Translations under genes and position numbers: made by a program
Assembly: GCA_043786385.1 (NCBI GenBank)
Contig: JAYVWC010000013.1
Span: 722 to 64,721, forward strand
DNA length: 64,000 bases
Reading direction: 5' to 3'
Source: Spongiibacteraceae bacterium
GTDB taxonomy: Bacteria > Pseudomonadota > Gammaproteobacteria > Pseudomonadales > CAMLJR01
Shown: in pieces, positions 31,214 to 61,919 of the stretch
How positions within the stretch are numbered: the first letter of the stretch is position 1
Layout of the letters: every line of letters begins with the position of its first letter
Notes under the pieces: model-generated
What the model saw: the letters and a program-made list of their open reading frames with translations, nothing else
What the model was told of the DNA's origin: nothing
Databases searched by the model: none

Positions 31214-34200
31214 ATGCCAAATCATGCGCTAAATCAACCAGCAGCAATCGATTTATCCGTATCCAATAGCGATTCCCTGATGCAGGAAAATTTTCGCCTG
31301 CTGGGCATTACGCCGTTTGAGTTTGCCGATTTGGCATTGGCACAGGCATTTATCCGCCACGGCGGTGCTGCGGCAATCGATATCGGCCGCGATACCGCGC
31401 AATGGCCGCAATTATTTGCACAGCTCGAACGAGCGCACTCGCCGTTTCTCGGTGTGCGTATTCCCGATCGCGTGCCGATGACTGCAGTACTATTGCCGCA
31501 AACAGTCGGCTTTGTTGTCATCGATGCCGGTGCGAATATCGCTGCGTGGAGTTCGCAATTCGCCGTCATCGTACAAGTGACTTCGGTGACGCAGGCATTA
31601 ACCGCGCTGAAAGCCGGTGCGCGTGCATTGATCGCCAAAGGTCAGGAGAGCGGTGGCTTAATCGGCGACGAGAGCAGTTTTATTTTATTGCAGCGCATTC
31701 TGAGTTTGCCGGAGGCGCGCGATATTCCGGTGTGGTGTCAGGGCGGTATCGGTTTACACACAGCGGCGGGTGCGATTGCCGGTGGTGCGTTCGGCGTGGT
31801 GCTCGATAGTCAATTGGCGTTGTTGAACGAAAGTCGCATCGGCGATGACATTAAAAATGCGGTGCGTGCGATGGATGGCAGCGAGACCTGTGTGATCGCT
31901 GGTTATCAACTTTACAGTCGACCGGGTTTGCCGGTTGCTGAAAGCCATGCGTTGAACGCCGATGAAGTGCGTGCGCGGTTGGCCGGCAGTCATCTCTTGG
32001 GCAATAGTAATTTGCAACAAAATAGTAATTTGCAACAATTTTTACCGCTCGGTCAGGATGCGGCGTTGGCGCATGCGCTCGCTGCGCAATGCCCGAATGT
32101 CGAAGCATTGCTGAATAGTTTGCGCGCGAGTATCGCCGGTCATATTCGCCAGGCGCAGGCGTTGCAATCGCTACAGGAAAATAGTCCGCTGGCACTCGCA
32201 CATGGTACGCGCTTGCCGATTGCGCAAGGGCCGATGACGCGCGTCAGCGATACCGCTGCGTTTGCCGCTGCAGTTGCTGAGCAGGGTGCGCTGCCGTTTC
32301 TCGCGTTATCTCTGATGAATGCCAGCACCGCGCGCAAACTACTTGAAGAGACCCGCGCCAGTATCGGTCAGCACAGTTGGGGCGTCGGCGTGTTGGGTTT
32401 TGCCAATGCAGAAATTTTAAATCCGCAACTCGAATTGATTCGCGAATTTCGACCGTCGGTGGTGTTGTTAGCCGGTGGACGTCCGGCGCAGGCGCGGCCG
32501 CTGATCGAACTCGGCATCACCACGTATTTGCATGTGCCGTCGCCAGGTTTACTCGAATTATTTTTGAAAGATGGTGCGCGGCATTTCGTATTCGAAGGCC
32601 GTGAATGCGGTGGCCACGTTGGCCCGCGTTATAGTTTTGTACTGTGGGAACAACAGCTGCAATTGCTGCTTAATTTCGAACACGCCGAAGAGTTGCATAT
32701 TTTATTTGCCGGCGGCATTCACGACGAGCGCTCGGCGGCGATGGTCGCGACGATGGCCGCACCATTGGCCGCGCGCGGCGCAAAAATTGGCGTGTTGATG
32801 GGCACTGCATATATCGCCACGCAAGAAGCTGTCGATTGCGGTGCGATCGTGCGCAGTTTTCAACAGCAGGCGGTTGGCAGCGGCGAAACGGTGTTGATCG
32901 AAACAGCACCGGGACATGCGGTGCGGTGTTTGCCGTCGAATTTCGTGCAGCAATTCAACGCCGAAAAAGCGAATTTGCAAGCGCGCGGTTTGGATCGCCA
33001 AGAAATTTGGAAGCAACTCGAAGAATTGAATATCGGCCGCTTGCGTATCGCCACCAAAGGCGTCGAGCGCGGCGACGATGGCTTGATCGAAGTCGATCAA
33101 CGCCAGCAAAACGATGCCGGCATGTACATGATCGGCCAGCTGATCGCATTGCGCAGCAGCATCGGCAATATCGCCGAATTGCATCGCGCCGTCAGCGGCG
33201 GTGCGATCGAATTTTTAAATAATGTCGAAGTGCCATTGATGCCGCGTGCAAAAAATGCCGAGCCAATTGCAATCGTCGGCATGGAATGCATTTATCCCGG
33301 TTCGCCCGATCTCGAAGCGCTGTGGGCGAATATTCTCGCCGGCAACGATTTGATCACCGAAGTACCGGCCGAGCGCTGGAACACCGATTTATATTATCGC
33401 GAAGGCGCCGCGCAAAAAGGTAAATCGCCGAGCAAGTGGGGCGGCTTTATCGATGCGATTGCGTTCGATCCGCTCGAATACGGTATTCCACCGCAATCGC
33501 TCGCGGCGATCGAGCCGGTGCAATTGCTCAGTTTGGAAGTGGCGAAGCGCGCACTGGTCGATGCCGGTTACGGCGCGCAGCAGCGCTTTTTCGATCGCGA
33601 AAAAACTGCGGTGATTTTTGGTGCCGAAGCGGGCATGGATCTCGCGAACAGTTATGCGTTCCGCAATTTGTATCCACATTATCTCGGCGAATTGCCGCCG
33701 GAACTCGATGCCGTATTGCCCGATTTAACCGAGGATTCGTTCCCCGGTGTATTGGTCAATGTGATCTCGGGTCGCATCGCCAATCGTTTGGGTTTGAGTG
33801 GCGTTAATTATTCGGTCGATTCGGCATGCGCCAGCTCGCTCACCGCGATCGAATTGGCTGTGAAAGAATTGCGCGCCGGTAGCAGCGATATGGTGTTGGC
33901 TGGCGGCGCGGATTTCCACAACAGCATCAACGATTTTTTAATGTTCGCGAGCGTCGGTGCGCTGTCATCGCAGGGTCGTTGTCGCTCGTTCGATAGCAGC
34001 GCCGATGGTATTTGCTTGGGCGAAGGCGTCGGCGTCGTCGTGTTGAAACGGCTCGAAGATGCACAGCGCGATGGCGATCGCATTTATGCGTTGATCGACG
34101 GCATCGCCGGTTCCAGCGATGGCAAAGGTTTAGGTTTAACCGCGCCGCGCAAAGACGGACAAAAACGCGCGCTCGAACGCGCGTATTGGCAAGCGGGTAT

Positions 34201-37200
34201 TCTGCCGGCGGAAATCGGCTTGGTCGAAGCGCACGGCACCGGCACCGTGGTCGGCGATAAAACCGAATTGCAAACGATGACCGAAATTTTCACTGCGGGT
34301 GGCGCATTGCCTGCGCAGGCGGCGTTGGGCTCCGTCAAAAGTCAGATCGGTCACACCAAATGCGCCGCCGGTATCGCCGGTTTTATCAAAATCAGCAAGG
34401 CGCTGTATCACCAAGTGTTGCCGCCGACCTTGCATATCGAAACACCGAATAGCGCGTATCGCGCCGCCAGCAGTCCGTTCACGTTGAATAGCACCGCACG
34501 GCCGTGGCTACAAAATCAATATGGCGTGCCGCAACAAAAATTGCGCGCGGCAGTCAGCGCGTTCGGTTTCGGCGGCGCGAATTTTCACGCGGTGCTATCC
34601 AATTATGTCGGTGATCACGCGAATTACATGGGCGATCCTGCGAATTATCTTGGCAATCAAGCGCATTGCGGCGCGGTGCAATGGGCCGCTGAATTATTTA
34701 TTTTTCGCGGCGAGCAATTCGCGCATGCCGCGCAGACGATGCAGCAGCTGCTTAACTTTATCGAAGCCAGCGACGCCACGCTCGCGTTACGCGATTTGAG
34801 TTTTACTGCGGCGCAGGCCGGCAGCGGCGCGTTGCAATGCGCGTTTGTTGCGCACGATCGCGCTGAATTGTTCGCGAAATTAACGATGGCGCTACAGCGC
34901 GAAATCAATTCGGCGCTTTGCTATCGCGACGCCGATGTGAACACTGGGAAAATCGCGTTTGTGTTTCCGGGCCAAGGCAGTCAAACGCCGGGCATGCTGC
35001 ACGAATTATTTATCGCGTTTCCGCAATTGCACGATGTGTTGGCGATCGATCCGGCGTGTGCGGCGATTTTATTTCCGCCGACCGCGTACGCACGCGCCGA
35101 GCAGCAAGCGCAGCAGCGTGCGATCACCGACACGCGCATTGCGCAGCCCGCGCTCGGCATGGTCGAGCTGAGCGCGATGACGTTACTGAAAGCGCTCGGC
35201 ATCGTGCCGGCGATGGCGGCCGGTCACAGCTACGGTGAATTAGCTGCATTGGCGAGCGCCGGTTGTTTTGATGCCGCGACGTTATTGCAAGTGAGCCGCC
35301 AGCGCGGCGAAGCGATTCTCGCCGCAGCGGGTAACGATCCCGGCAAAATGGCGGCGGTGAATTGCGGTTACACCGAGCTGCAAAAATTATTCGGCGACGA
35401 TGCGGCTGTGGTACTCGCCAATCAAAACAGCGCGACGCAGACGGTAATTTCGGGTCCGACGCTCGCGATCGATGCGGCGCTGGTGTTTCTGAAAGAGCAG
35501 GGCATTGCTGCGAAAGCGATCGAAACCGCGTGTGCATTTCACTCGCCGGTGGTGGCGCGCGCCGCGGTGTTATTTTCCGGCGTGTTGCAAAACGTCGAAA
35601 TCGCAGCTCCGAGTTTTCCAGTGTATTCAAATACCACGACGCTGCCGTATCAAAGCGATACTGATGCGATCAAACATCAATTGGCGCAACACGTGGTTAG
35701 CCCGGTGCGCTTCGTCGAACAAATCGAAAAAATGTACGCCGACGGCGCGCGCGTGTTTGTCGAAGTCGGACCGAAGCGCGTGCTTAGCGGCTTTATCGAT
35801 AATATTCTGCAAGGCAAAGCGCATCGCGCGATTGCAATCGAGCCTGCGGGCCAAACCGGCATCGGCGCATTTTTGCACGCGGTGGCACAGCTCGCGGTGC
35901 TTGGCGATACGCTGGATATGGCGGTGTTGTTCGCGGGACGAAAACCGCGCGTGCTTGATTTAACCACGCCGCAAAAATTATCGGCCGCGTGCTGGATGGT
36001 CGATGGTGGTCGTGCATGGCCGCGCACCGGCCGCGCGCCGCAACACGCTGGCAAAGCGATTACCGCGCCGTTGCAACTCAGTGTTAACAGCGCCGCGCTG
36101 CCCGCATCGCTCGAAGAAAATGCCGTGGTCGGTTATCTCGACAATATGCGCGAATTAGTGCGCGCGCAGCGCGATGTACTGCTCGGTTTTCTCGGCCAAG
36201 CGCCGACACCGATGGCAGCGAGAAATGAAATCGCGACGCCGCGCATTGCTGCTCCAAACTCAACGCGCAACGAATCGATCGCCAGCGTTAAAGTTGACGA
36301 GCCGGAGCCAGTAGCAGATGCCGCGCCGCACGCCGTCGATTTTCAAGCGACGTTGCTTGCGATCGTCAGCGAGCGCACCGGTTATCCGATCGAGATGCTC
36401 GATCTCGATCTCGATTTAGAAGCCGATCTATCGATCGATTCGATAAAGCGCGTCGAAATTATTGGTGAGCTGGCGGCGCGGTTGGATTTTCGCCAGCAAC
36501 TCGGCGCCGATGCCGATGCGCTGCTCGAACAATTATCGACGCAGAAAAATTTGCGCGCGATTATCGACTGGCTTAACGAATATGCCGGAGATCGCAATGC
36601 GAATATGAATTTAGCGACCGGCACTGTAGCGGTTGACGAACAAACCGACACCGAGCAAAAAATAGAAATTCCACTCGGCCGCTACGTATTGAAAAGTGTA
36701 CTCGTCCCGGCTGTGATTCAGGGCGTGCGCGAATTGCACGGCAAACAATTCGTGCTCACCGACGATAGCCTCGGCATTGCAGCGCAATTAGCGGCGCGGT
36801 TAACGGCGCGCGGCGCGCTGGTGCGGGTAATTAATTTCAGCGAAGACGAAGCATTCCCTGCCGATTTGCAACACGTCGATGGCTTGATTCATCTGTGGTG
36901 TTTGAATCCCGACAATCGCGTGCGCGATGTCAAACGCTTTTTCGATTTGGTACGCGAAACACTGCTGCACCAAACGCGCTCGGTATTGGTGGCCAGCGGT
37001 CTCGGCGGCGATTTCGGTTATCACGTGCCCGCCGCGAATGAAATCGCGTCGGACTTTGGCCGCGGCGCGGGCTTGGCGGGCATGATCAAATCGATCGATA
37101 AAGAATGGCCCGAAGTGCGCGCGCATTGGGTCGATCTCGATTTGCGCGAAGCACCGGAGCAATTGGCCGCGCATCTTGAAGACGAGCTGTTGGCGCAAAA

Positions 37201-38155
37201 TGATTTGACCGAAGTCGGCTATCGCGATGGCGCGCGGCGGCGTCTCGAGTTTATCGAGGTTGCATTGCCGCAGCTGACGACGCTGCCGTTGGATTTAAGC
37301 GTCGATAGCGTCGTATTGTTGACTGGCGGCGCACGCGGTATCACCGCAGGTCTTGCGATCGAATTGGCGAAGCGTTATCGCTGCCGCTTGGAATTGGTCG
37401 GGCGCTCAGCATTGCCGTTGGCACCGGAGTCTGCGAAAACTGCAACGATTACCGATATCAAACAATTGCGACAGACGGTGATCGCCAGCGAACCAACGTT
37501 GAAGCCGTTGGAAATTGAACGCCGCTGCGCGCAAATTCTCGCCGAGCGCGAGATGCGCAATACCATTGCTGCAATCGAGGCAGCCGGTGCGCGCGTCGCA
37601 TACACGCAACTCGATGTGCGCGACATCGATGCGTTCGCGGCGTTTATCGAAAATCTGTACGCGCGCTACGGTTCGATCGACGGCGTGATTCACGGCGCCG
37701 GGGTGATCGAAGACAAATTGATGCGCGATAAATCGCCGGAAAGTTTTCAACGCGTGTTCGATACCAAAGTGCGTGGCGCGTTGATGCTCGATAAATTATT
37801 GCGCGCTGATTGTAAATTCGTCGTATTTTTTTCCAGCGTTGCGAGTGCGTTCGGCAATCGCGGTCAAGTGGATTACGCGGCGGCCAACGATGTGCTCGAT
37901 AAACTCGCGCTGACGTTGCGCACGCGTTTACGCGGCCGCGTGTTGTCGGTGAACTGGGGGCCGTGGGCCGATACCGGCATGGTGTCGCCGCAACTCGAAC
38001 GCGAATATGCGCAGCAAGGCATCGGTTTGATTCCGTTGGCAGTGGGCATCGATGCGTTGTTGCACGAATTAACGGCGGGCAGTCGCGATGATGCACAGGT
38101 GGTTTTGATGTGTGGCACACCGGCAAGTTTCGGCGCGCCGAGCAGCGCGGGGTAA
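31214..38155 (+). CDS. Type I PKS/PUFA-synthase-like protein: FMN-dependent enoyl reductase (NMO/FabK/PfaD-like)-KS-AT-ACP-KR
   Basis: PIAQGPM, EGRECGGH and FAGGIHD (ER); DSACASS, EAHGTGT and GHTK (KS); FPGQG, GHSYG and AFHS (AT); DLSIDSI (ACP); TGGARGI and YAAAN (KR). Confidence 0.92.
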   Translation: MPNHALNQPAAIDLSVSNSDSLMQENFRLLGITPFEFADLALAQAFIRHGGAAAIDIGRDTAQWPQLFAQLERAHSPFLGVRIPDRVPMTAVLLPQTVGFVVIDAGANIAAWSSQFAVIVQVTSVTQALTALKAGARALIAKGQESGGLIGDESSFILLQRILSLPEARDIPVWCQGGIGLHTAAGAIAGGAFGVVLDSQLALLNESRIGDDIKNAVRAMDGSETCVIAGYQLYSRPGLPVAESHALNADEVRARLAGSHLLGNSNLQQNSNLQQFLPLGQDAALAHALAAQCPNVEALLNSLRASIAGHIRQAQALQSLQENSPLALAHGTRLPIAQGPMTRVSDTAAFAAAVAEQGALPFLALSLMNASTARKLLEETRASIGQHSWGVGVLGFANAEILNPQLELIREFRPSVVLLAGGRPAQARPLIELGITTYLHVPSPGLLELFLKDGARHFVFEGRECGGHVGPRYSFVLWEQQLQLLLNFEHAEELHILFAGGIHDERSAAMVATMAAPLAARGAKIGVLMGTAYIATQEAVDCGAIVRSFQQQAVGSGETVLIETAPGHAVRCLPSNFVQQFNAEKANLQARGLDRQEIWKQLEELNIGRLRIATKGVERGDDGLIEVDQRQQNDAGMYMIGQLIALRSSIGNIAELHRAVSGGAIEFLNNVEVPLMPRAKNAEPIAIVGMECIYPGSPDLEALWANILAGNDLITEVPAERWNTDLYYREGAAQKGKSPSKWGGFIDAIAFDPLEYGIPPQSLAAIEPVQLLSLEVAKRALVDAGYGAQQRFFDREKTAVIFGAEAGMDLANSYAFRNLYPHYLGELPPELDAVLPDLTEDSFPGVLVNVISGRIANRLGLSGVNYSVDSACASSLTAIELAVKELRAGSSDMVLAGGADFHNSINDFLMFASVGALSSQGRCRSFDSSADGICLGEGVGVVVLKRLEDAQRDGDRIYALIDGIAGSSDGKGLGLTAPRKDGQKRALERAYWQAGILPAEIGLVEAHGTGTVVGDKTELQTMTEIFTAGGALPAQAALGSVKSQIGHTKCAAGIAGFIKISKALYHQVLPPTLHIETPNSAYRAASSPFTLNSTARPWLQNQYGVPQQKLRAAVSAFGFGGANFHAVLSNYVGDHANYMGDPANYLGNQAHCGAVQWAAELFIFRGEQFAHAAQTMQQLLNFIEASDATLALRDLSFTAAQAGSGALQCAFVAHDRAELFAKLTMALQREINSALCYRDADVNTGKIAFVFPGQGSQTPGMLHELFIAFPQLHDVLAIDPACAAILFPPTAYARAEQQAQQRAITDTRIAQPALGMVELSAMTLLKALGIVPAMAAGHSYGELAALASAGCFDAATLLQVSRQRGEAILAAAGNDPGKMAAVNCGYTELQKLFGDDAAVVLANQNSATQTVISGPTLAIDAALVFLKEQGIAAKAIETACAFHSPVVARAAVLFSGVLQNVEIAAPSFPVYSNTTTLPYQSDTDAIKHQLAQHVVSPVRFVEQIEKMYADGARVFVEVGPKRVLSGFIDNILQGKAHRAIAIEPAGQTGIGAFLHAVAQLAVLGDTLDMAVLFAGRKPRVLDLTTPQKLSAACWMVDGGRAWPRTGRAPQHAGKAITAPLQLSVNSAALPASLEENAVVGYLDNMRELVRAQRDVLLGFLGQAPTPMAARNEIATPRIAAPNSTRNESIASVKVDEPEPVADAAPHAVDFQATLLAIVSERTGYPIEMLDLDLDLEADLSIDSIKRVEIIGELAARLDFRQQLGADADALLEQLSTQKNLRAIIDWLNEYAGDRNANMNLATGTVAVDEQTDTEQKIEIPLGRYVLKSVLVPAVIQGVRELHGKQFVLTDDSLGIAAQLAARLTARGALVRVINFSEDEAFPADLQHVDGLIHLWCLNPDNRVRDVKRFFDLVRETLLHQTRSVLVASGLGGDFGYHVPAANEIASDFGRGAGLAGMIKSIDKEWPEVRAHWVDLDLREAPEQLAAHLEDELLAQNDLTEVGYRDGARRRLEFIEVALPQLTTLPLDLSVDSVVLLTGGARGITAGLAIELAKRYRCRLELVGRSALPLAPESAKTATITDIKQLRQTVIASEPTLKPLEIERRCAQILAEREMRNTIAAIEAAGARVAYTQLDVRDIDAFAAFIENLYARYGSIDGVIHGAGVIEDKLMRDKSPESFQRVFDTKVRGALMLDKLLRADCKFVVFFSSVASAFGNRGQVDYAAANDVLDKLALTLRTRLRGRVLSVNWGPWADTGMVSPQLEREYAQQGIGLIPLAVGIDALLHELTAGSRDDAQVVLMCGTPASFGAPSSAG

Positions 38156-38160
38156 GCGCG

Positions 38161-41100: not shown

Positions 41101-42639
41101 CAACAAGCGCATCTGACACCACAATCGACCGGCGAGCGTCGTGGTGTGCAATTAGATGAATCAGTGCCAGCGCCGTTTGAACAACGCATCGTGCAGCGGC
41201 TCGATATCGATACCAATATCGCCGACGTGATCGATCATACGTTTTATCCGCAGCCGGTCGGTTGGCCGGTGCTTGCCGATCGTCATCCGGTAATTCCGTT
41301 GACGATGGAAATTACATTGCTGCGGCGCGCGATCGAACAGCGCATGCCCGGTTACGTCGTGATCGGTTTTGAAGATGTTAGCGCGTTCAATTGGTTGGTG
41401 GTTTCAAAACCGGTCGATATCGAAATCGTGTTGCAGATGAAAACTTTTCCGCTGCTTGAAGTCGGCATCGAAGGCTATATGCATGCGAAGGCGATCGTCG
41501 CGCGCGATTATCCGCAGGCACCGGTGGCGCATACCGATCAATTGGTTAATTTGCGCGCGGCGGCAATCGATGCCGAAGCGCTGTATCGCGATAATTGGAT
41601 GCTGCACGGCCCTGCGTATCAAGGTGTGATTGCGCTCGGACCGATCGCCGATAACGGCATTCGCGGTCGTCTGCGCGTGTCGCGCGGCGTTGGCGCGCTA
41701 CTCGACAACATGGGCCAGCTCGCAGGCTATTGGGTGATGGAACAGGACGACAATTGCCTCGCGATGCCGATCGGCGTCGAGCAAATTTGTTTTTACGGCC
41801 CGGAGCCGGTGCTCGATCAACAATTCGATTGCGAAATCACCGTGCGCAATATCGATGTGCTCGGTTGTGTCACCGATCAACAGTTGTACACCGGTGATGG
41901 TCGCGTCGAAATCGCGATGCACGGTTGGCAAACGCGCCGTTATCAAATGGATCGCGATTTTTGGGTAGCCAGCAAACAGCTGCAGAAATATATCGTCAGC
42001 GAAAAACTCGGTGCGAATGTCGTACTGTTTAACGATCGCTACGATACCGCGATTTTGCGCGATTATTTGGCGCGTCGCTATTTGAATCAATTGGAATTCG
42101 CGCAGTACGAAGCGCAGGCGCCGCGGCGTCGGCGCAGTTGGTTGAATGGGCGCGTCGCGGTGAAAGATGCGGTGCGTGCGTACTGTTGGGCGCAGCGCGG
42201 CGCATTCGATTTTTTCCCGAAAGAAATGCGTATCGATAACGCCGCCAGCGGTCAACCGCTGTTGACCACGCATATCACGCAGCCGTTCAGCGAGCATCTG
42301 CACATCTCGATTGCGCACAAGGATTTGCTGGCGGTGGCGATGGTCGGCGTGAATCCGGTCGGCGTCGATATCGAAGCGATCGTCGAGCGCGAAGCGAGTT
42401 TTATCGATCTCGCCTTCAGCGCCAGTGAGCAGAAATTACTGCCGACTAACAATCGCAACGAATGGATTGCGCGTTGTTGGGCCGCCAAAGAAGCGCTGGC
42501 GAAAATGCGCGGCACCGGGCTGCAAGGCAAGCCGAAACAATTTCAAATCGATGCGATCGACGCGCAACGCATTCGCGTCGATGGTCAGTGGATCGAAACG
42601 CAGCGTTATCGTGATTACGCAATAGGATGGACAATTTAA
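38161..42639 (+). CDS. Type I PKS: KS-AT-DH fused to a 4'-phosphopantetheinyl transferase
   Basis: GTG start at VEPIAIVGM; DAACASS, EAHGTGT and GHAM (KS); GHSIG and GFHT (AT); HGPAYQ and LLDNMGQ (DH); ISIAH, VGVDIE and WAAKEA (PPTase). Confidence 0.9.
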   Translation: MEPIAIVGMAGIFPGAPDITCYWRNIVAAVDAISDVPAQRWDPLFYDPESSAIDRFYCKRGGFVDDYVDFDPLQFGVMPKAAQSADPDQLLSLRVGVDALTDAGYKTREFARVRTGVIIGRGNYLSAGTLRLEQHVRLVQQTLQTLQDLLPDIGAEQLAQVRTQLENKLDYYGPDVAVGMIPNLVASRLANRLDLQGPAYTVDAACASSLLAIEQACQLLAHGDCDMMLTGGLHFTHDLTFWATFCQLGALSRAQKIKPFAHDADGILAGEGIGIVVLKRLADAERDGDRIYALIQGVGSASDGRGSSLLAPAVGGQLLALQRAWQHSALKPEQIGLVEAHGTGTPAGDQAELETMRQFFGERVFGDHIFDKQASAYQRPVIGSVKSMIGHAMPAAGVAGLIKAALSVYHGVLPPTLHCEQPHALLARTRFRTISKSEPWHAKQRIAAVNAFGFGGINAHIVLSSHRAQPVSFNHASMAAVSVNSISVQSTHVAPPPVVVIAAASQAELLEKLQRAQWDRAPGNGTWRLAIIEPDAKRIELAKKVVANGKVWHGRSQIYFSCEPLLNNTNTPSAKVAFLFPGVDSAFEPRATDVADYFQLPLPEHCESLDPAQSLLKVVQGLSGFNQFTFSVLNRLAVHADGMAGHSIGEWSAMVAGGMLARERAEAALSKLDFDGVSFPDLIFLAAACDLSMVQSALASLADVALSHDNCPHQTIVCGSSASIAQVEARLREQSVLMQRLPIVSGFHTPFFVEHLPHYRDFFLQTELTESSVPVWSATTAQPFPNSVAAKQQLALDHLVQPVRFRQMIENMYVAGYRVFIQLGTGSLSGFVQDTLKGKPHLAINVNSDKHSGLQQLTQLSAALWVEGLQFDYRLLGFADAVENVSSKKTAPSANSIKLRLGVPLIRMEPAMTLHAPRLGVLDNGSLSDDPIQRLFHDTLVDIQQVSDEVAQLYRQRQQRRDQSPHLPQPSQATRETLQSQQAHLTPQSTGERRGVQLDESVPAPFEQRIVQRLDIDTNIADVIDHTFYPQPVGWPVLADRHPVIPLTMEITLLRRAIEQRMPGYVVIGFEDVSAFNWLVVSKPVDIEIVLQMKTFPLLEVGIEGYMHAKAIVARDYPQAPVAHTDQLVNLRAAAIDAEALYRDNWMLHGPAYQGVIALGPIADNGIRGRLRVSRGVGALLDNMGQLAGYWVMEQDDNCLAMPIGVEQICFYGPEPVLDQQFDCEITVRNIDVLGCVTDQQLYTGDGRVEIAMHGWQTRRYQMDRDFWVASKQLQKYIVSEKLGANVVLFNDRYDTAILRDYLARRYLNQLEFAQYEAQAPRRRRSWLNGRVAVKDAVRAYCWAQRGAFDFFPKEMRIDNAASGQPLLTTHITQPFSEHLHISIAHKDLLAVAMVGVNPVGVDIEAIVEREASFIDLAFSASEQKLLPTNNRNEWIARCWAAKEALAKMRGTGLQGKPKQFQIDAIDAQRIRVDGQWIETQRYRDYAIGWTI

Positions 42640-42947
42640 TGTCGGGACATGGTCAACAACAAATACTCAATAAACCGGAAATACTATCGCAAGTGATCGA
42701 CGCGATTCGTAGCGCGATCGCCGAGGATTGGGTGATGGATTTCGATATCGATGCCGATACGCGCTTCAACGACGATTTGGAGTTGGAGAGCATCGAATTT
42801 GTCGCGATCGCCGAAGCGCTACAAAAATTATTCGGCGATCGGGCCGATGTGATCGGTTGGCTGTCGAGCAAAGATATTCACGAACTGATCGGCTTAACCG
42901 TCGGCGATTTAGCCGATTTTATCGAACAAGATAGACAGCGCGGGTAA
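42639..42947 (+). CDS. Stand-alone acyl carrier protein
   Basis: Acidic ~100-aa protein with DTRFNDDLELESIEFV and LTVGDL; ATG overlaps the PKS2 stop (TAATG). Confidence 0.88.
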   Translation: MSGHGQQQILNKPEILSQVIDAIRSAIAEDWVMDFDIDADTRFNDDLELESIEFVAIAEALQKLFGDRADVIGWLSSKDIHELIGLTVGDLADFIEQDRQRG

Positions 42948-42952
42948 AGAGC

Positions 42953-44185
42953 GTGGCAAAAATTTTGATAACTGCGCCGCCGTTGGCGGGTCATTTGAAT
43001 CCCGCGCTCGCGGTTGCCGAGCGGTTACAGGCGCGCGGTCACGAAATCGCGTGGGCAGTGCAGGATGAAGCGATCGGCGATTTGCTGCCAGCGCACGCGC
43101 AACGTTTTGCATTACCGCTCGATGCGGCGCTGCCATCGAAACAAAATGCAGGCGCAGTGCGCGGTTTGGAGAGCGTGCGCTTTTTTTATGAAGATTTCTG
43201 TCTACCGATGGCACGCATCACGCTGCGGCCGTTGGAGCGAATCGCGCGCGCATACGAGCCCGATTTTATGCTGTGCGATCATCAAATGCTGGCCGGTGCG
43301 TTGGTCGCGCGCCAATTGAATATTCCGTGGTTGTCGTCGGTTACCACCACTGCATCGCTGCTGAAAATGACACCGGTAATGGAGGAGTGGCTGGCCTCGC
43401 AGTTGCACGAGCTGCAGCTGCTGTATCGCGCAACGCAGTGCGTGGAGCGCCCCGATATTTCGCCGCACGGCGCGTTGGTATTTTCGTCCGAGCAATTGCT
43501 CGGCGATAAATTCGAGCGCATCGGCGGCACGCATCATTTTGTCGGGCCAGCGTTTTCGGGGCGCGTGCCGAACGCGCCGTTCGATTGGCAATTGCTCGAT
43601 ACCCACAAGCGTAAAATTTTGATTTCGCTTGGCACCGTTAGTCGCGATCGCGGCGTGCGGTTTTATGAAGTGATGATGCAGGCGCTGGCCGATCTTGATG
43701 TGCAGGTGATTATGGTGGCGCCGCCGGAAATGGCCGCGAGTGCGCCGCGCAATTTTATCGTGCGCTCGCGCGTGCCGCAGGTGGAATTGCTGCCGCATCT
43801 CGACGCGGTAATTTGTCACGCCGGCCACAATACCGTCTGCGAAGCACTGTCGTTCGGTTTGCCGTTAATCGTCGCACCGATTCGCGACGATCAGCCGGTG
43901 ATTGCCCGGCAAGTGATCGATGCCGGTGCCGGTTTATTTATGCGCTTCGGCAAAGTGACGCCAGCGACCGCGCGTGCAACGATCGAACAATTGCTCAGCG
44001 ATACGAGTTTCAAAACCAATGCGCAGCAACTCGCGCAATCGTTTCCCGGTCTCGGTGGTGCGGCGCGCGCGGCGGTGTTGATCGAGCAGTTATTGAACGA
44101 GCAACCGATTAAGCAGATGCCAAATAAACAACAGCCCGATACTGCAATGTTAGCCGGGGATCGGGGCCGCCATGTATTTCATTGA
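42953..44185 (+). CDS. GT1/MGT-family glycosyltransferase
   Basis: GHLNP, ISLGT and VPQVELL...ICHAGHNTVCEAL...DDQ (UDP-sugar binding box). Confidence 0.9.
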   Translation: MAKILITAPPLAGHLNPALAVAERLQARGHEIAWAVQDEAIGDLLPAHAQRFALPLDAALPSKQNAGAVRGLESVRFFYEDFCLPMARITLRPLERIARAYEPDFMLCDHQMLAGALVARQLNIPWLSSVTTTASLLKMTPVMEEWLASQLHELQLLYRATQCVERPDISPHGALVFSSEQLLGDKFERIGGTHHFVGPAFSGRVPNAPFDWQLLDTHKRKILISLGTVSRDRGVRFYEVMMQALADLDVQVIMVAPPEMAASAPRNFIVRSRVPQVELLPHLDAVICHAGHNTVCEALSFGLPLIVAPIRDDQPVIARQVIDAGAGLFMRFGKVTPATARATIEQLLSDTSFKTNAQQLAQSFPGLGGAARAAVLIEQLLNEQPIKQMPNKQQPDTAMLAGDRGRHVFH

Positions 44186-44951
44186 ACACGACGGCGTGCG
44201 CTTGCATTGCAGCAGCATGGGCAGCGGGCCGCCGTTGGTGCTGTGTCACGGCTTGGTGTTTGGCAGCATGGCGAGTTGGTATTTTTCGATCGCGACCAAA
44301 TTAGCGCAGCGCTATCGCGTAATTTTGTACGATCAACGCGGCCACGGTAAAAGTACGTTGGCAGCTAACGGTTACGATGTGGCGACGTTGGCCGGCGATC
44401 TGGCTGCGGTGATCGCGCACGAAATAAAAGGCGACGAAGCGGTGGGGCTGATCGGGCACAGCTACGGCGCGTTGGTTGCGTTGCAATATTGTTTAGAACG
44501 ACAGGCGACACCACAAAAAACCCAACGCGTGCGCAGTTTGGTATTGATCGATGCGCCGTTACCAGCCGCGCATTATGTGCTGCCGAGTATCGCCAACGTG
44601 ACGTCGAGTGCTGCGCTAACGGCGCAGTTTCCCGACGCATTGCGCGCACAATTGGCCAGCGGTGGGCGGCGCGCCGAGCAGCTGCAAAAACGCTTGGAAT
44701 TTTTATTATTGCAGAGCAGCTTGCGCGCCGATGTGGCGGCGGCTGGCGATGTAGCCGATGCGCAATTGCGCGATCTCGCGCTGCCGGTGTTGTGCGTTTA
44801 CGGACGCGAGTCCGATTGCACGGCGGCCGGTGTGCGGCTCGCACAACAATTGCCGCAAGCAACATTGGAATGGTTGGATTGCGGCCATTACATTTTGCAA
44901 GAGGCACCGAGCAAATTGCTGAACACGTTAAATAATTTTGCGGATTTATAA
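44172..44951 (+). CDS. Alpha/beta hydrolase (possible thioesterase)
   Basis: LCHGL, YDQRGHGKS, GHSYG nucleophile elbow and C-terminal GH. Confidence 0.85.
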   Translation: MYFIEHDGVRLHCSSMGSGPPLVLCHGLVFGSMASWYFSIATKLAQRYRVILYDQRGHGKSTLAANGYDVATLAGDLAAVIAHEIKGDEAVGLIGHSYGALVALQYCLERQATPQKTQRVRSLVLIDAPLPAAHYVLPSIANVTSSAALTAQFPDALRAQLASGGRRAEQLQKRLEFLLLQSSLRADVAAAGDVADAQLRDLALPVLCVYGRESDCTAAGVRLAQQLPQATLEWLDCGHYILQEAPSKLLNTLNNFADL

Positions 44952-44976
44952 ATAGAGAGATAGATAGAGAGCGGCG

Positions 44977-45804
44977 ATGGATACCAATAAAGATAATATT
45001 CCGGTTTCGGCCCTGTACACCTCGGCGACTTGGCATTGGGGGCAACTGCCATGCACCGAGCTGGTGTTGCCCGACGGCGCCACCGGGCTGTTTAAAGTGG
45101 TGAATGCCTATATGGTGTTTTACCGCTGGTTAAATCCGGAAAAATTTTCGTTGCAACACACGTTGCTGCATCGCCATACCGCGATTAATCATTTGTTAGA
45201 GCAAGCCGCCTGCCCGCAAGTGATCGAAGTCGCCGCCGGGTTTTCGCCACGCGGCAGTATGGTTAGCGAAAATACGGCGGTGCAGTATTACGAAGTCGAT
45301 CTGCCCGATGTGGTTGCGCTGAAGCGACGCCGTTTGAGCGAAACCGAGGCGGGGCGCGTGGTGTTAGCGCGTCCGAATTTTGCGCTGCTGCCGGGCGATA
45401 TTACCCAGATTGATTTCCTTGCCGCATTTCCGGTACGGCGCTCATTTATTATCACCGAAGGGTTGATGATGTATTTCAAGCGCGCCGAGCAATTGAAAAT
45501 TTGGCAAAAAATTGCGCGCTACATCGCGGCCAATGGCGGCGAATACGTGTTCGATTATATTCCGCTCGACGACGAACCGCCGCGCAGCGCGCTCGGCAAT
45601 GCGCTGAGTAATTTTAAAAATTTCTGTTCGTCGAAAGAACCCACGTATGCGTACGATGAACGCACGCGCATGCAGGTCGCCGACGATTTACGCGCCGCGG
45701 GTTTTCGCGAGGTCGATGTGTATAGCAGCGCCGATATTGCGCGCGATTGGCGGCTGCCGCACAGCGACATTGCAACTCGCGTCATTGTTTATCGCTGCCG
45801 GTAG
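44977..45804 (+). CDS. Class I SAM-dependent methyltransferase (LCM/O-methyltransferase-like)
   Basis: SALYT, VIEVAAGFSPRG, EVDLPDVV and ITEGLMMY motifs. Confidence 0.82.
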   Translation: MDTNKDNIPVSALYTSATWHWGQLPCTELVLPDGATGLFKVVNAYMVFYRWLNPEKFSLQHTLLHRHTAINHLLEQAACPQVIEVAAGFSPRGSMVSENTAVQYYEVDLPDVVALKRRRLSETEAGRVVLARPNFALLPGDITQIDFLAAFPVRRSFIITEGLMMYFKRAEQLKIWQKIARYIAANGGEYVFDYIPLDDEPPRSALGNALSNFKNFCSSKEPTYAYDERTRMQVADDLRAAGFREVDVYSSADIARDWRLPHSDIATRVIVYRCR

Positions 45805-45811
45805 CCATCGC

Positions 45812-47050
45812 ATGTCGCAAGCTGCCGCTGGTAATTATCGTCGCCGATTGTCCGGCGTCGAGCGCTATTCATTAGTGATCAACGAACTCTGTCGCTACAA
45901 CGTCGACGGCGTGGTTGAAGGCAATGGCGTGCTGGAAGAAGATGCGGTGCGAACTGCGGTTGCGCTTGCAGCCGCGGCGAATCCCGGCGTGCGCGTGCGG
46001 CTAACAGGCTGGCTGGGTTTTTCGCAGTGGGTCGATAGCGGTATTCCACCCGCGGTGCGTACCGTGTTGGCACCGGCTTGGGATGGTTGCTCCGAACTCG
46101 GCACCGAGTTTATGCAGCAGCGTTTCGATGCGCTCGGCGGCGGCCCGATCGCCGATGTTCTGATCGTGCGCAGCAAAAAAACGCATTTGATTTTTCGCGG
46201 TTTGCACGCGGCAATGGATGGTCGCGGTATGTTGCACTGGCAGCAGGAGGTGTTTCGCGCGCTGCGCGGCGAGCCATTGCAAGGCAGCAATTCGACATTG
46301 ACCGATTTCGATGTTGCGGTGCGCTTTCGCGAACAGCTCGAAGCGACTAAAAAAACAATTAATAAATCGCTGCCACCCGCTATATACATTCCGGTGGTGC
46401 CGCCTAGCGAGCAGCGCGAGCCGGGCTTGGATTATATGTGGCGGATGTTGGTGCTGCCGAAAAATATCAGCAATATTCTTGCGCAAGCGGCGATTTTTCT
46501 TGCGCAGTACGCGCGTCGCGATGGAGCGCGCGCAGACGAAGCAGACGGTGTCGTCGGCTTTACCGTACCGGTCGATTTTCGCGGTTTGCGCGTAGCAGCC
46601 GATAGTACCGGCAATCTCACCGGCTATCTGCGCATTCAAGTATCCGCCACCGACTCCAGCAAAAATATCATGTTGCAAATTGGCCGGCAGATTCGCGCCT
46701 GCGTCGATTGCCAAACGCCGCTGGGTGCGAATGTGTTGCGTTGGATTCCGATTGGGTTGTTGCTGAAATTGTTAAAACGAAAAGCCGAGCCGCTGCTGTA
46801 TGCGGTCAACAAGGATTTGCCGAGCGGTGGTTTGGTATCGATCGGGCAGCTCGATACGATAGATTTTTGCTGCCCCGGTTTTACCGCCGAGCGTAATTTT
46901 GGTATTCCCGGCTCGGTCGGTAAATTGAATGTGGTGATGGTCAATCAACCAACTGCAACGACGGTAATTTTTTCAGCGCCAAAAAATTACAATCGCGAAG
47001 GCCAAATCGATAATTTGGTACGGGATTTTGCGGCGGCATTTTCGGTATGA
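45812..47050 (+). CDS. Stand-alone condensation/CoA-dependent acyltransferase-fold protein 1
   Basis: HAAMDG (HxxxDG) and VPVDFR...TGNLTG motifs; paralogous to 47837-49171. Start set to ATG 45812. Confidence 0.72.
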   Translation: MSQAAAGNYRRRLSGVERYSLVINELCRYNVDGVVEGNGVLEEDAVRTAVALAAAANPGVRVRLTGWLGFSQWVDSGIPPAVRTVLAPAWDGCSELGTEFMQQRFDALGGGPIADVLIVRSKKTHLIFRGLHAAMDGRGMLHWQQEVFRALRGEPLQGSNSTLTDFDVAVRFREQLEATKKTINKSLPPAIYIPVVPPSEQREPGLDYMWRMLVLPKNISNILAQAAIFLAQYARRDGARADEADGVVGFTVPVDFRGLRVAADSTGNLTGYLRIQVSATDSSKNIMLQIGRQIRACVDCQTPLGANVLRWIPIGLLLKLLKRKAEPLLYAVNKDLPSGGLVSIGQLDTIDFCCPGFTAERNFGIPGSVGKLNVVMVNQPTATTVIFSAPKNYNREGQIDNLVRDFAAAFSV

Positions 47051-47844
47051 ACGCGGTCGCGAAACAGAGTAATGAATATCTTTTTCGTGGTGCCAGGAAA
47101 ACACTGCTGCTGATCTTTGTTCTCGTACTGAGTGGTTGCGCGGTATTTTCGTCGAGCAAACCGGTGCTGCCATTGCAGGATGGATTAACTGTCTATCGCA
47201 CCGAGCACTCGCCGGCGCGCACGGTATTATTGGTGCCCGGCTGTGGCGGCATCAATACCAATGGTTCGAGCGAATTTTATTCGCGCGTTGCTCGGCAATT
47301 AAATGCGAACGGCTTTAACGCGATTATTTTGGATTACGTAAAACTGATGGGGCAGAAAAATGCCTGCCTTGGACAAATCAAGTTTGAAGCGGTGCTGGCG
47401 TTGATTAACTCGGCGTTGGCTTACACCGCGCAGCAACCGTTTGTCGATCCGCAGCACATAAGTTTATTGGGTTGGTCGTTGGGCGGCTCCGGCGTGTTGA
47501 CAGTGGCGAGTAAAAGTACGCAGCCGTCGATCAGCGCGGTGGCAGCCTATTATCCCGGCTGTTACGACGGCTTGCAGTTCTCAATGCATCCGACCTTGCT
47601 AATGTTAGGTCTCGCCGACAACGTGGTGAATCCGCAAGACTGCATTGCGCTGGCGCGGCAATTTCCACAGGCCCCGCTGACGATTAAAACGTATCCCGGC
47701 GCACACCACGGCTTCGATGTCGACGAATTACAGCCAGCGCAACAAATGCATTTTTTTTGGAAAACATTTACCGCCGAATATCAGCAGCAGGCTAGCGAGG
47801 ATGCGATGCAGGTGCTGCTCAATTTTTTAAAAGAGAATGGTTAA
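47047..47844 (+). CDS. Dienelactone hydrolase-family alpha/beta hydrolase, probable lipoprotein
   Basis: Lipobox LSG-C; GWSLGG, AYYPGC and YPGAHHGFD motifs. Confidence 0.8.
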   Translation: MNAVAKQSNEYLFRGARKTLLLIFVLVLSGCAVFSSSKPVLPLQDGLTVYRTEHSPARTVLLVPGCGGINTNGSSEFYSRVARQLNANGFNAIILDYVKLMGQKNACLGQIKFEAVLALINSALAYTAQQPFVDPQHISLLGWSLGGSGVLTVASKSTQPSISAVAAYYPGCYDGLQFSMHPTLLMLGLADNVVNPQDCIALARQFPQAPLTIKTYPGAHHGFDVDELQPAQQMHFFWKTFTAEYQQQASEDAMQVLLNFLKENG

Positions 47845-49171
47845 AGTGAACTCCTCCGTAGATGATTTGCACTCGCGTGCTCAGTCGAAAAAATTGCAAT
47901 CGCCGAAAGCGCCGTCGCTGCCCTTGGCGCCACAAACTGATGTGCTGCGTAAACTTAGCACGCCCGAGTATTACCACGCGGCGGTTGGCCGCAGTGCTAA
48001 CACTTTAGAGCAGGCGCGCATCAGTATCATGATGGTCGAAGGCATCAGTCGCATTACACCGCTGCGTTGGGAGACGGCGCTGCGCCGTGTGGCGGCTGCG
48101 AACCCCGGCACGCGCATGCGTTTGCTCGGACAGCGGCAGCGTGCGCGCTGGAGTACCGAAGGCGCGTGCTATCCGCGGCTGCGCTTCGTCGATAATTGCA
48201 GCTGGGATGGTCGCTCGCAGCACGGTGCCGAGTTTATCGATGCCACGCCGCTCGATCTGGAGACCGGGCCGGTAGTCGAATTGATTATCGCCAACGGCGC
48301 CACGACGTTGGTTATTTTGCGTGCGCATCACGCGGTGATGGACGGCATGGGCATGCTGCATTTTTTTCGCGAGCTATTTCGCGCGCTACGCGACGAACCG
48401 TTGCAAGGCTGCAACGCCGCGTTCAGCGATGTCGAATTAATGCGCGAGGTTACGCAGTCGGCGCAACGTACTGAAAAGGAAAGTAGCGAAAATCAAAGCA
48501 GCGATAAGCAAAGCGGCGATAAACTCAAAAAAAATTCGCCGATTCCTCTTACTGGCGGAGCGCAGGGCACCGAGTTCGGCGATGTCTGGCAGCGGCTGAC
48601 ATTGCCGCTGACGCCGCAGCAGAATGTGATGGGGCGCATCGCGGAGCTGGCAGCGCGCTATGCCCGCAATTTTGGCAGCGGCACCGTGCGCTTCGCGGTG
48701 CCGGTCAGCCTGCGTCGGCATCTGCCTGGCCTGTTATCGACGCTGAATTTTACCGGCCTGCTGCATATCGATTTAGAACCCAACGGAAACGCTGAAGATT
48801 TTCGCCGCAAATTGCGCACCGCACTCGATGAGAAACGCGATGCCGCGTATCACCCGATTCTTAATTGGGTGCGCTATCTGCCATTCAGCTGGGTCGATTG
48901 GATCAGTGGCCGACGGCCAAGTAATTATCTACAGCGCAAATTGGTCGAGACGGTGCTGATCACCAATTTCGGCGTGGTCGACCTGCGCGAGCTTGCATGC
49001 ACCGATTTCGATCCCAGCAATTTTTTTAGTCTGCCGATCGCCGGCAATTCGTTTATTTCGCTGTACGCCAGTGGCGATCATCTGAACATCATCGTCGGCA
49101 TGCCGACGGTTTATGCGGTCGGCGGCCGCATGGATCGATTTGTGGAACAGTTGCAGCAAATGCTGGGCTGA
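47837..49171 (+). CDS. Stand-alone condensation/CoA-dependent acyltransferase-fold protein 2
   Basis: Canonical HHAVMDG motif and VPVSLRR; shares AAANPG, WDG and FRALR.EPLQG with protein 1. Confidence 0.78.
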   Translation: MVKVNSSVDDLHSRAQSKKLQSPKAPSLPLAPQTDVLRKLSTPEYYHAAVGRSANTLEQARISIMMVEGISRITPLRWETALRRVAAANPGTRMRLLGQRQRARWSTEGACYPRLRFVDNCSWDGRSQHGAEFIDATPLDLETGPVVELIIANGATTLVILRAHHAVMDGMGMLHFFRELFRALRDEPLQGCNAAFSDVELMREVTQSAQRTEKESSENQSSDKQSGDKLKKNSPIPLTGGAQGTEFGDVWQRLTLPLTPQQNVMGRIAELAARYARNFGSGTVRFAVPVSLRRHLPGLLSTLNFTGLLHIDLEPNGNAEDFRRKLRTALDEKRDAAYHPILNWVRYLPFSWVDWISGRRPSNYLQRKLVETVLITNFGVVDLRELACTDFDPSNFFSLPIAGNSFISLYASGDHLNIIVGMPTVYAVGGRMDRFVEQLQQMLG

Positions 49172-49313: not shown

Positions 49314-49412
49314 TTGACAGCCCCGCTTTCGCCATATACTGTATATAACAACTGTATATAACTACAGTATAATTAAGCGCAGTGTAATTAAACGCAATGT
49401 AATTAAATACAG
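49314..49412 (+). promoter_or_regulatory. sigma70 promoter with LexA (SOS) boxes
   Basis: TTGACA(49314)-17-TACTGT(49337); perfect CTGT-N8-ACAG at 49352-49367; one-mismatch boxes at 49339-49354 and 49397-49412; upstream of dinB. Confidence 0.85.
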
Positions 49413-49430: not shown

Positions 49431-49682
49431 ATGCACGAAGTTCTTTTACTACGCTGGTGCCAAGCCGGCATTATCCTCTGCGGCATATTGCTGATCCTGA
49501 TCGGCAGCGGCGTGCAAATACGCTGGCTGCACGCGGCAGTGCTGGTGGTGGCGAGCGGCGTGATCGCCGGGCTGCTGTACGAAGGCCGCCGCCGGTTGCG
49601 CGGTGAAGGCGATGGTCTAGTGGCGATGTTATTACCGCTGGCCGGTGGTCTCTCCGGCATGTTTGCGCTGCTGCATGCCTAG
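49431..49682 (+). CDS. Small hydrophobic protein (~3 TM segments), first gene behind the SOS promoter
   Basis: G-rich RBS-like GGGGTGAG; three hydrophobic stretches; ends 55 nt before the dinB ATG. Confidence 0.55.
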   Translation: MHEVLLLRWCQAGIILCGILLILIGSGVQIRWLHAAVLVVASGVIAGLLYEGRRRLRGEGDGLVAMLLPLAGGLSGMFALLHA

Positions 49683-53399: not shown

Positions 53400-53418
53400 C
53401 GAAGTGAAAAATAAATAG

Positions 53419-53434
53419 CTGGATAAACAGCCAG
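53419..53434. promoter_or_regulatory. Putative LexA box upstream of cas3
   Basis: CTGGATAAACAGCCAG fits CTG-N10-CAG with CTGG/CCAG arms. Confidence 0.5.
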
Positions 53435-53447
53435 GACAGCTTTTGTC
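53435..53447. promoter_or_regulatory. Palindrome GACA-N5-TGTC, putative WYL regulator site
   Basis: GACAGCTTTTGTC, between the WYL stop and cas3. Confidence 0.45.
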
Positions 53448-53488
53448 AGGGCGGCGATATACAGTGCTCCGCAATGAGATGAACAACC

Positions 53489-53567
53489 GTAGGGGCAGAC
53501 CTATGTGTCTGCCCGGATATTCAAGCGCACGACAATCATTCGTAGGGGCAGGCCCCCGTGCCTGCCC
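53489..53567 (+). repeat. Two GTAG-family REP-like palindromes in direct orientation
   Basis: GTAGGGGCAGACCTATGTGTCTGCCC (53489-53514) and GTAGGGGCAGGCCCCCGTGCCTGCCC (53542-53567), with a compensatory stem change. Confidence 0.75.
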
Positions 53568-53585
53568 ATTTTGGTGGAAAAGAGT

Positions 53586-58722: not shown

Positions 58723-58732
58723 GGATAGAGCC

Positions 58733-59578: not shown

Positions 59579-59714
59579 AATAGACGAAACCTACCTCGCC
59601 ATTTCCGCCCTGCAACACTACGCCTATTGCCCTCGGCAATTCGCGTTGATTTATGTGGTGCTGCTATGGGCGGAATTTAAAAATGCTCAGTGCCTTTCGT
59701 TAATTAAGAGGTGA
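59568..59714 (+). pseudogene. cas4: Truncated 5' copy of cas4 (48 codons)
   Basis: MASEIDETYLAISALQHYAYCPRQFALIYVVLLWAE matches the N-terminus of intact Cas4, then diverges and stops. Confidence 0.85.
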
Positions 59715-59717
59715 TAC

Positions 59718-61905: not shown

Positions 61906-61919
61906 GTGGTTAAATAATT

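Follow-up and report, generated by a model that had tools for sequence, protein, structure and literature searches.

The window analyzed here, a 64,000-nucleotide stretch from a Spongiibacteraceae bacterium (assembly GCA_043786385.1, contig JAYVWC010000013.1, positions 722 to 64,721 of the forward strand), carries an operon of nine genes built around two polyketide synthases (PKSs), PKS1 and PKS2. Judged by its domain order, the operon is, at the group level, a member of the secondary lipid synthases of Types M/N/O. On balance, we favor as its product a glycosylated long-chain hydroxy-acyl lipid, mostly saturated, which would be acylated, methyl-esterified, and either located at the cell surface or secreted.

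The nine open reading frames (ORFs) lie on the same (+) strand at 31214-49171, contain no internal stops, and are separated by intergenic gaps of -14 to +25 nt. A first-pass annotation of the DNA had described nine tightly packed genes, and both the ORFs and the domain calls, made with Pfam and NCBIfam, agree with its gene and domain list (Table 1). Chance grouping of the nine genes is excluded, because their synteny is kept in relatives.

Domains and catalytic residues of PKS1 and PKS2

Residue conservation was counted over 64 PKS1 loci and 75 PKS2 sequences; because these are kin and not independent, the counts show conservation, not repeated origin. Both ketosynthase (KS) domains keep a full Cys-His-His triad, Cys872/His1007/His1047 of KS1 in 64/64 loci and Cys206/His341/His391 of KS2 in 75/75 sequences. 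No chain-length factor (CLF) domain was found among the operon proteins, and the two KS domains are 43% identical to each other with both triads intact, so neither is a CLF. The first-pass annotation had likewise noted the complete triads, the catalytic serine of both acyltransferase (AT) domains, which proved invariant, and the missing CLF.

The two AT domains differ in their substrate-binding residues. AT1 carries the malonyl-type residues Gln1254 (63/64), Arg1364 (64/64), and His1443 (64/64), by which it is a canonical malonyl transferase. AT2 keeps Ser647 and His748 (75/75 each), whereas the position of the malonyl-binding Gln is taken by Val583 in the window (Leu in 39 and Val in 31 of the 75 sequences), and Lys671, which aligns with the Arg of FabD, falls in an unconserved column (most commonly Ser, 20, and Gly, 17 of 75). 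As read from the alignment, AT2 is thus without the malonyl-binding Gln/Arg pair, as are the PfaB long-chain acyltransferases. PfaB, which has lost the same pair, moves palmitoyl and not malonyl groups, and this loss has been tied to its long-chain acyl transfer (2026 Protein Science, PMC12895367; this and the other papers are cited from the portions of their text that were available).

The enoylreductase (ER) region of PKS1 had been annotated as a fused single ER. The fusion is present, but the region is a tandem pair of NMO/FabK-type domains, of which only the second copy has the FabK-type His (His468, 64/64); at this position, the first copy has Leu in the window and Arg in 42/64 loci. The active-site residues of the in-line acyl carrier protein (ACP; Ser1743) and of the ketoreductase (KR; Tyr2221) are kept in 62/64 loci. 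A single in-line ACP, previously regarded as distinctive, turned out to be ordinary for the family: one copy is found in 46, two in 16, and three in 2 of the 64 loci, as counted from BLAST high-scoring segment pairs, which may undercount.

The only dehydratase (DH) of the operon lies in PKS2 and matches PS-DH (25.7 bits, cut-off 23.7) and, weakly, PpsC, whereas FabA-type DH domains gave zero matches. Its residues His1026/Asp1182/Gln1186 are kept in 75/75 sequences. Polyunsaturated products are unlikely without a FabA-type isomerase. Because the DH matches PS-DH/PpsC and not FabA, and because there is no CLF, the product chain is probably saturated and not a polyunsaturated fatty acid (PUFA). 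The earlier label "PUFA-like" therefore holds for ancestry only, given the PKS-type DH and the lack of a KS-CLF and of a FabA-type DH pair.

The phosphopantetheinyl transferase (PPTase) at the end of PKS2 is of the ACPS type and carries the P1b' motif, as defined in PMC3098273, rather than P1b; its Ser1400 and His1403 (P0001 numbering) are invariant in 22/22 sequences. There is no adenylation domain in the operon, and Pfam detected no cyclase or product-template domain among its proteins. One homolog (P0048, 1949 amino acids) has PKS2 fused to a GT1 glycosyltransferase domain; this may reflect either a genuine fusion or read-through in sequencing.

A conserved five-gene core

Scanning a genome collection with the PKS2 alignment returned at least 603 stretches, at least 601 of them confirmed, a number to which PKS1 and other paralogues may contribute; analysis was confined to the best 80 loci. 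They come from six phyla: Gamma- and Betaproteobacteria, Myxococcota, Actinomycetota (Streptomyces, Amycolatopsis, Frankia, Kutzneria, and others), Gemmatimonadota, Chloroflexota, and Acidobacteriota. The PPTase end was scored in 67/80 loci, 58 of which have at least 3.5 kb of room downstream. A free ACP and a hydrolase follow PKS2 in all 58 of these, a glycosyltransferase (GT) follows in 56, and all three small genes occur together in 56/58; the KR end of PKS1 is present in 63/67. Because the ACP, the hydrolase, the GT, and the KR end of PKS1 recur beside PKS2, we define the conserved unit as five genes.

The remaining genes are rarer over the best 80 loci, with the methyltransferase in 9, the condensation-like proteins C1 and C2 in 6 and 4, and the lipoprotein hydrolase in 0. 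The methyltransferase and the lipoprotein esterase are optional and not part of the core. When neighboring genes were clustered, shadow ORFs from high-GC loci dominated the result and no additional conserved gene emerged; an accessory gene may have been missed.

In Frankia, the genus of locus L046, the PKS2 tail was matched in 14/14 genomes, and the loci are full-length syntenic orthologues with ∼39-50% identity. The resemblance to actinomycete clusters that had been noted for the two-PKS core is thereby supported. Searches of a Frankia and a Streptomyces genome (2/2) gave no match for C-family proteins (the family of C1 and C2). Among 400 scored genomes of the class, the PKS2 tail was matched in four and the full operon in two; G047 carries the full operon. 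In G200 (L141:366-17435), the genes after a PKS1-like one encode a free DH-PPTase, ABC proteins, and a reductase; the 20 kb read contain neither KS2-AT2 nor a free ACP or GT. In G241 (L142:6905-19999), a sulfotransferase comes after a degenerate KS-AT-DH-PPTase, and the locus is a candidate sulfolipid pathway. Because the cassettes of G200 and G241 differ, and because the Ars system of Azotobacter vinelandii uses type III PKSs, the comparison suggests a single long-chain engine whose head-group cassettes can be exchanged; in this operon the cassette would consist of KS2-AT2, free ACP, hydrolase, and GT1.

Small core genes and tailoring enzymes

The free-standing ACP scores below the Pfam cut-off; its Ser55 is nevertheless conserved in all 85 aligned sequences and is preceded by Glu in 83/85. 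The active site of GT1 is nearly invariant, with His14 and Asp109 in 81/81. Its best model is the macrolide-GT subfamily, below the cut-off (186 versus 260 bits), and the family is of the MGT/UDPGT type. The α/β hydrolase matches Thioesterase (41.6 bits, cut-off 26.4) and keeps Ser97 in 87/88 and His239 in 80/88 sequences. Among the optional genes, the methyltransferase is of the LCM type, which suggests a free carboxylate. The dienelactone hydrolase (DLH)-like hydrolase starts with an N-terminal hydrophobic stretch that ends in Cys31; within the family it was found in 4/15 genomes, namely the four with the PKSs, and it occurs in 0/80 of the other loci.

C1 and C2 resemble condensation domains

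C1 has no Pfam match, and C2 matches Condensation below the cut-off (20.7 versus 30.6 bits); the two are 27-28% identical. In both, the second His and the Asp of the HHxxxDG motif, the catalytic pair, are conserved, His132/Asp136 in 38/38 C1 and His165/Asp169 in 27/27 C2 sequences, whereas the first His of the motif is Leu in 30/38 C1 and His in 14/27 C2 sequences. An AlphaFold model of C2 (pLDDT 87) was matched by Foldseek to the condensation (C) domains of nonribosomal peptide synthetases (NRPSs) with E values of ∼1e-17 to 1e-15 (top ∼3e-17) and TM scores of ∼0.5-0.6, including LgrA, Txo2, SrfA-C, the starter C domain of RzmA, and the C-terminal C domain of MokA. According to this model, C2 has the two-lobed fold of an NRPS C domain, and by homology the same fold is assigned to C1. 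The sequence match of the C family to C1 of the CDA synthetase is weak. Because this fold and the catalytic His and Asp are kept, C1 and C2 are credible carrier-dependent acyltransferases.

C1 and C2 share the fold and catalytic His/Asp with solved NRPS C domains but differ from them in being free-standing and paired, only 11-18% identical, below the Pfam cut-off, and encoded in an operon without an adenylation domain. The C family comprises 463 representatives at E <=1e-30. Three of the 150 representatives listed are long fusions with adenylation (A) and PCP domains, as is a match in G413. These proteins (P0249, P0307, P0386, and L139:7044-10094 in G413) are NRPS-like, with the orders A-PCP-C, C-C-A-PCP, and C-A-PCP, and the fusion in G413 is unrelated to the PKS cluster of that genome. 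Another locus (L112:101-3777) encodes three tandem divergent C-family members on a 7-kb contig without a PKS gene.

We also considered an identity of C1 and C2 as PapA5/WS-DGAT-type enzymes. Pfam gave only a sub-threshold hint in this direction (3/14 members, best E 0.024), and of the 40 Foldseek matches listed, almost every one is an NRPS domain of the C, E, or Cy type; this assignment was rejected.

The proteobacterial clade and its exporter

In a tree of the 75 PKS2 sequences (FastTree, midpoint root), those with C1 nearby form one clade with a support of 1.00. The PKS2 of the window groups with Myxococcota-side sequences, apart from the actinomycete branch, in this tree without named Type N or O references. 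The usual gene order of the clade is PKS1, PKS2, ACP, GT, hydrolase, an optional methyltransferase, C1, a membrane fusion protein (MFP), an ABC ATPase, two FtsX/MacB permeases, and C2. Close relatives have a MacAB-type four-gene exporter between C1 and the hydrolase, whereas the window copy is without all four genes. Here the genes for C1 and the lipoprotein share four bases, and in relatives exporter genes lie just upstream of the lipoprotein gene. The MFPs of three relatives from the genus are 67-100% identical to the query. C1 and C2 are also adjacent, and the pump also missing, in L016 and L017. The copy in the window, which comes from a metagenome-assembled genome, is a reduced member of the clade and not the best one to study.

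Full-length PKS2, C1, C2, and the esterase co-occur in the same 4/15 family genomes. In two of the genomes (G010, L138:7489-8700; G011, L137:6333-7577), C2 lies outside the operon beside suf Fe-S assembly genes, and the unlinked C2 is retained only in genomes carrying the PKSs. These two have two in-line ACPs, compared with one in the window. Among 42 metagenome loci of the C family, 21 have a core gene and 7 have exporter genes only.

Relation to known lipid synthases

Shulse and Allen (2011, PMC3098273) list Types M/N/O as ER-KS-MAT-ACPn-KR / KS-AT-PPTase / ACP with "uncharacterized products". Type M was assigned to Frankia, where it is conserved in the three genomes finished by 2011, Actinosynnema, Renibacterium, and S. 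avermitilis; Type N to Chitinophaga and Chryseobacterium; and Type O to Dinoroseobacter, Parvularcula, and Gloeobacter (PMC3098273). The fused pfaDA and pfaBC-PPTase genes of Renibacterium are still treated as a not yet characterized secondary lipid synthase by a 2026 paper (JACS Au, PMC13291983), in line with the first-pass statement that the products are poorly defined. In full-text literature searches, with most subscription papers outside their reach, we found no product name for this cluster type.

The operon shares with Types M/N/O an ER-KS-MAT-ACP(1-3)-KR first gene, a KS-AT-PPTase second gene, a free ACP in third place, and the P1b' PPTase. It differs from strict Type M in its single in-line ACP, compared with two in the Table S1 entries. 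The DH of PKS2 is not annotated in the 2011 table, and the term "glycosyl" is absent from the main text of PMC3098273. In the window the GT precedes the hydrolase, and there are additional genes for C1, C2, and the esterase and, in relatives, also for the exporter. The features by which the operon had been set apart from pfaA-E are all present, but they are the cataloged layout of Types M/N/O and not special to this operon. In the papers searched, there is no prior description of the five-gene core, of the non-malonyl AT2, or of the clade with C1/C2 and exporter.

Among the characterized systems, Ars of Azotobacter vinelandii (Type P) has a protein, ArsA, with the domain order of PKS1 (ER-KS-MAT-ACP-KR); the two are likened by this order. 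ArsA makes C22-C26 chains for a system that uses type III PKSs (PMC3098273). A free DH-PPTase partner that resembles the tail of PKS2 is found in G200. In place of a type III PKS, the nine genes include a type I KS-AT, a free ACP, a hydrolase, and GT1. With PfaA-E (Types A/B), the operon shares PfaA-type KS domains, an FMN-type ER, and, in AT2, the loss of the Gln/Arg pair seen in PfaB, but it has no KS-CLF, FabA-type DH pair, or array of 4-6 tandem ACPs. PKS1 scores 954 bits with the PfaA model TIGR02813, below the cut-off of 1010. The KS of Type B PfaB is without the cysteine (PMC3098273), whereas KS2 keeps the triad. Hgl (Type F) combines a Pfa-like engine with a long hydroxy chain that ends up glycosylated (PMC3098273). 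It differs from the operon in having KS-CLF-AT, separate KR and ER, and an ACP-TE gene. The glycosyltransferase of Hgl belongs to another family. Membership in the PUFA, Hgl, or Ars systems was rejected on the KS-CLF, the FabA-type DH pair, the ACP-TE gene, and the type III PKS. The enediyne PksE is a single KS-AT-ACP-KR-DH-PPTase polypeptide that works with a hotdog thioesterase; this assignment was also rejected, as the domains are here split over two proteins with an ER and a second KS-AT.

Proposed pathway

The genes, domains, residues, synteny, and C-domain fold are observations, from which we infer the chemical steps, their order, and the product as follows. The PPTase of PKS2 would arm both ACPs. 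PKS1 (AT1, KS1, KR, and ER) and the dehydratase of PKS2 would then run full reductive elongation cycles, and long acyl groups would be moved by AT2 between the ACP of PKS1 and the free-standing one. KS2 would perform the first or the last extensions, and an incompletely processed cycle would leave the hydroxyl. The hydrolase would release the acid and GT1 would add a sugar from its UDP form. C1 and C2 would each move an acyl group from acyl-ACP or acyl-CoA onto a hydroxyl (or an amine), with the LCM enzyme capping the carboxyl. In relatives, a final step would be export of the product through the MacAB-type pump, and its trimming outside the cytoplasm could be the task of the lipoprotein esterase. 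The first-pass annotation had proposed a long-chain lipid that is glycosylated, methylated, ester- or amide-linked, and possibly remodeled in the envelope; a glycosylated, acylated long-chain lipid is still the best inference, whereas methylation and envelope remodeling are optional.

This glycolipid reading is supported by the complete KS/AT/KR/DH/ER/ACP/PPTase set with conserved catalytic residues, and by the ACP, hydrolase, and GT1 that follow PKS2 across six phyla with a nearly invariant GT site. C1, C2, the esterase, and PKS2 share the same 4/15 genomes even where C2 is unlinked, and the C1-bearing loci form one fully supported clade (1.00). AT1 has the Gln/Arg pair and AT2 does not, which is the loss associated with long-chain transfer by PfaB. 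The same engine occurs with other head-group cassettes (G200 and G241), and the known relatives make C22-C32 chains (PMC3098273).

Several points weigh against it. C1 and C2 are dispensable for the core product, given their presence in 6 and 4 of the 80 loci. The solved GTs nearest to GT1, YjiC and OleI among them, act promiscuously on small molecules. Because fusions of C-family proteins to amino-acid-type adenylation/PCP modules also exist, amide chemistry appears as plausible as ester chemistry for C1 and C2. No orthologue of the exporter was found in the 82%-complete assembly, where the best MFP match is a generic paralogue with 25% identity. Fourteen of the 42 metagenome C-family loci have neither a core nor an exporter gene; 10 of the 14 are <=5.1 kb, and L111 is 17.7 kb long. 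Chain length, hydroxyl position, sugar, and acceptor lie beyond what can be read from sequence.

More tentatively, the core might define one conserved bacterial glycolipid class in six phyla, made by a two-KS, two-ACP hand-off via a PfaB-like AT, to which C1, C2, and the pump add, in one proteobacterial clade, the functions for a multi-acylated surface glycolipid. Such a lipid would be of a kind mostly associated with mycobacterial envelopes. If this is right, a new bacterial glycolipid class could be named, possibly a biomarker or biosurfactant, and condensation domains would be shown to act as free lipid-tailoring enzymes. With at least 601 matching stretches, the core ranks as one of the more widely distributed orphan lipid synthases, without a product since the 2011 catalog. 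The comparative anatomy predicts that AT2 prefers long acyl groups, that the chain is saturated, and that the acyl mass added by C1 and C2 is found only in the proteobacterial clade. Cultured carriers exist, among them Solimonas soli DSM 21787 (locus L018) with the full proteobacterial operon and Streptomyces avermitilis with the core only.

Alternative readings

The operon could instead make a secreted lipophilic antibiotic or surfactant, in which C1 and C2 join a diffusible acyl polyketide by amide or ester bonds to an amine or polyol of small size, whereas self-protection and export, not construction of the envelope, are the roles of the GT and of the MacAB-type pump in relatives. The best-scoring (sub-cut-off) macrolide-GT model of GT1, the exporter of the relatives, the C-family members inside NRPSs, and the patchy presence (4/15 family genomes, full operon in 2/400 class genomes) are consistent with such a product, and Pfa-like synthases are known to feed zeamines and chitinimines (PMC13291983). 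We nevertheless consider it unlikely, as the operon is free of adenylation domains and NRPSs, the GT hardly varies from phylum to phylum, and PKS2 occurs in 14/14 Frankia genomes, more like a structural trait. A phenolic-lipid analog seems rather unlikely as well. PKS1 and the DH would here make an ArsA-like chain, and KS2 with the free ACP would replace the type III PKSs, adding malonyl units that stay unreduced, to give an alkyl-pyrone or alkyl-resorcinol that is then glycosylated, methylated, and acylated. The identical domain order of ArsA, the occurrence in G200 of PKS1 with a free DH-PPTase but without KS2-AT2, the lack of a KR in PKS2, and the acceptance of phenols by YjiC-type GTs all fit this scheme; the missing malonyl-binding residues of AT2, the lack of a detected cyclase or product-template domain, and the free carboxylate suggested by the LCM-type methyltransferase do not.

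Given that the operon has two catalytic KS domains, a pair of carrier proteins, and an AT that suits long acyl groups, KS2 might also join two long acyl chains in a (coryno)mycolate-style Claisen condensation, yielding a branched hydroxy acid that is esterified to the sugar. This appears quite improbable, since AT2 is without the Arg for binding a carboxylated extender, GT1 enzymes mostly make glycosides and not sugar esters, and no acyl-CoA carboxylase was found among the nine genes or, in the noisy neighbor clustering, among recurring neighbors. A PUFA synthase that supplies membrane phospholipids, with unrelated neighbors, is highly improbable: the score of PKS1 with the PfaA model speaks for it but stays below the cut-off, KS-CLF and FabA-type DH pair are missing, there is one ACP, and the small genes are conserved together with the PKSs.

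Gene layout and neighboring loci

Table 1. Genes of the operon, in window coordinates
Gene	Position	Strand	Remarks
PKS1	31214..38155	+	2313 aa; degenerate ER, active FabK/PfaD-type ER, KS1, malonyl-type AT1, one ACP, KR
PKS2	38161..42639	+	1492 aa; catalytic KS2, AT2 without malonyl-binding Gln/Arg, PKS-type DH, PPTase
Free-standing ACP	42639..42947	+	Ser55 85/85
GT1 glycosyltransferase, MGT/YjiC-like, UDP-sugar type	42953..44185	+	Core gene
α/β hydrolase, candidate chain-releasing thioesterase	44172..44951	+	Core gene
LCM-family SAM methyltransferase, candidate carboxyl methyltransferase	44977..45804	+	Optional
C1, free-standing condensation-like putative acyltransferase	45812..47050	+	Marks proteobacterial clade
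Predicted lipoprotein serine hydrolase, DLH fold	47047..47844	+	Found only in the genus of the window
C2, free-standing condensation-domain protein	47837..49171	+	C-domain fold by AlphaFold/Foldseek

Three starts were shortened because of spacing and the lengths of relatives. PKS2 probably begins at GTG 38161 (longest ORF from 38110), the ACP at ATG 42639 (longest ORF from 42627), with a one-base overlap with the PKS2 stop, and C1 at ATG 45812. Scans for promoters and terminators stayed at chance level (10 versus 15.0 expected and 39 versus 35.0 expected) and gave no usable operon promoter. The nearest named PKS2 relatives are labeled Spongiibacteraceae. There is no sign of recent horizontal transfer, with a GC content of 0.558 for the operon versus 0.536 for the genome and with all four members of the genus in a single clade. 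Upstream of the operon lies a gene for an ABC-F ATPase and downstream of it dinB; these flanking genes are unrelated to the operon, and the flanks vary among genus members.

A perfect LexA-type SOS box (49352-49367) lies upstream of dinB, with 2 matches in the window versus 0.34 expected. Between this box and dinB is a small hydrophobic ORF of 83 amino acids (49431-49682) that has no Pfam match. A DUF5610 protein with low-complexity Ser/Thr/Ala stretches (50963-52279) is encoded between dinB and a WYL regulator. This HTH-WYL-WCX regulator directly precedes a complete type I-C CRISPR-Cas locus (52428-63813; cas3, cas5d, cas8c/csd1, cas7, cas4, cas1, and cas2), whose repeat array begins at ∼62457. 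On the minus strand at 1641-24710, the window contains a large exopolysaccharide locus with a GC content of 0.463, compared with 0.536 for the genome, which encodes a Wzz-type chain-length protein and an AAA_22 ATPase and, from its gene content, is possibly of the PEP-CTERM-associated kind.

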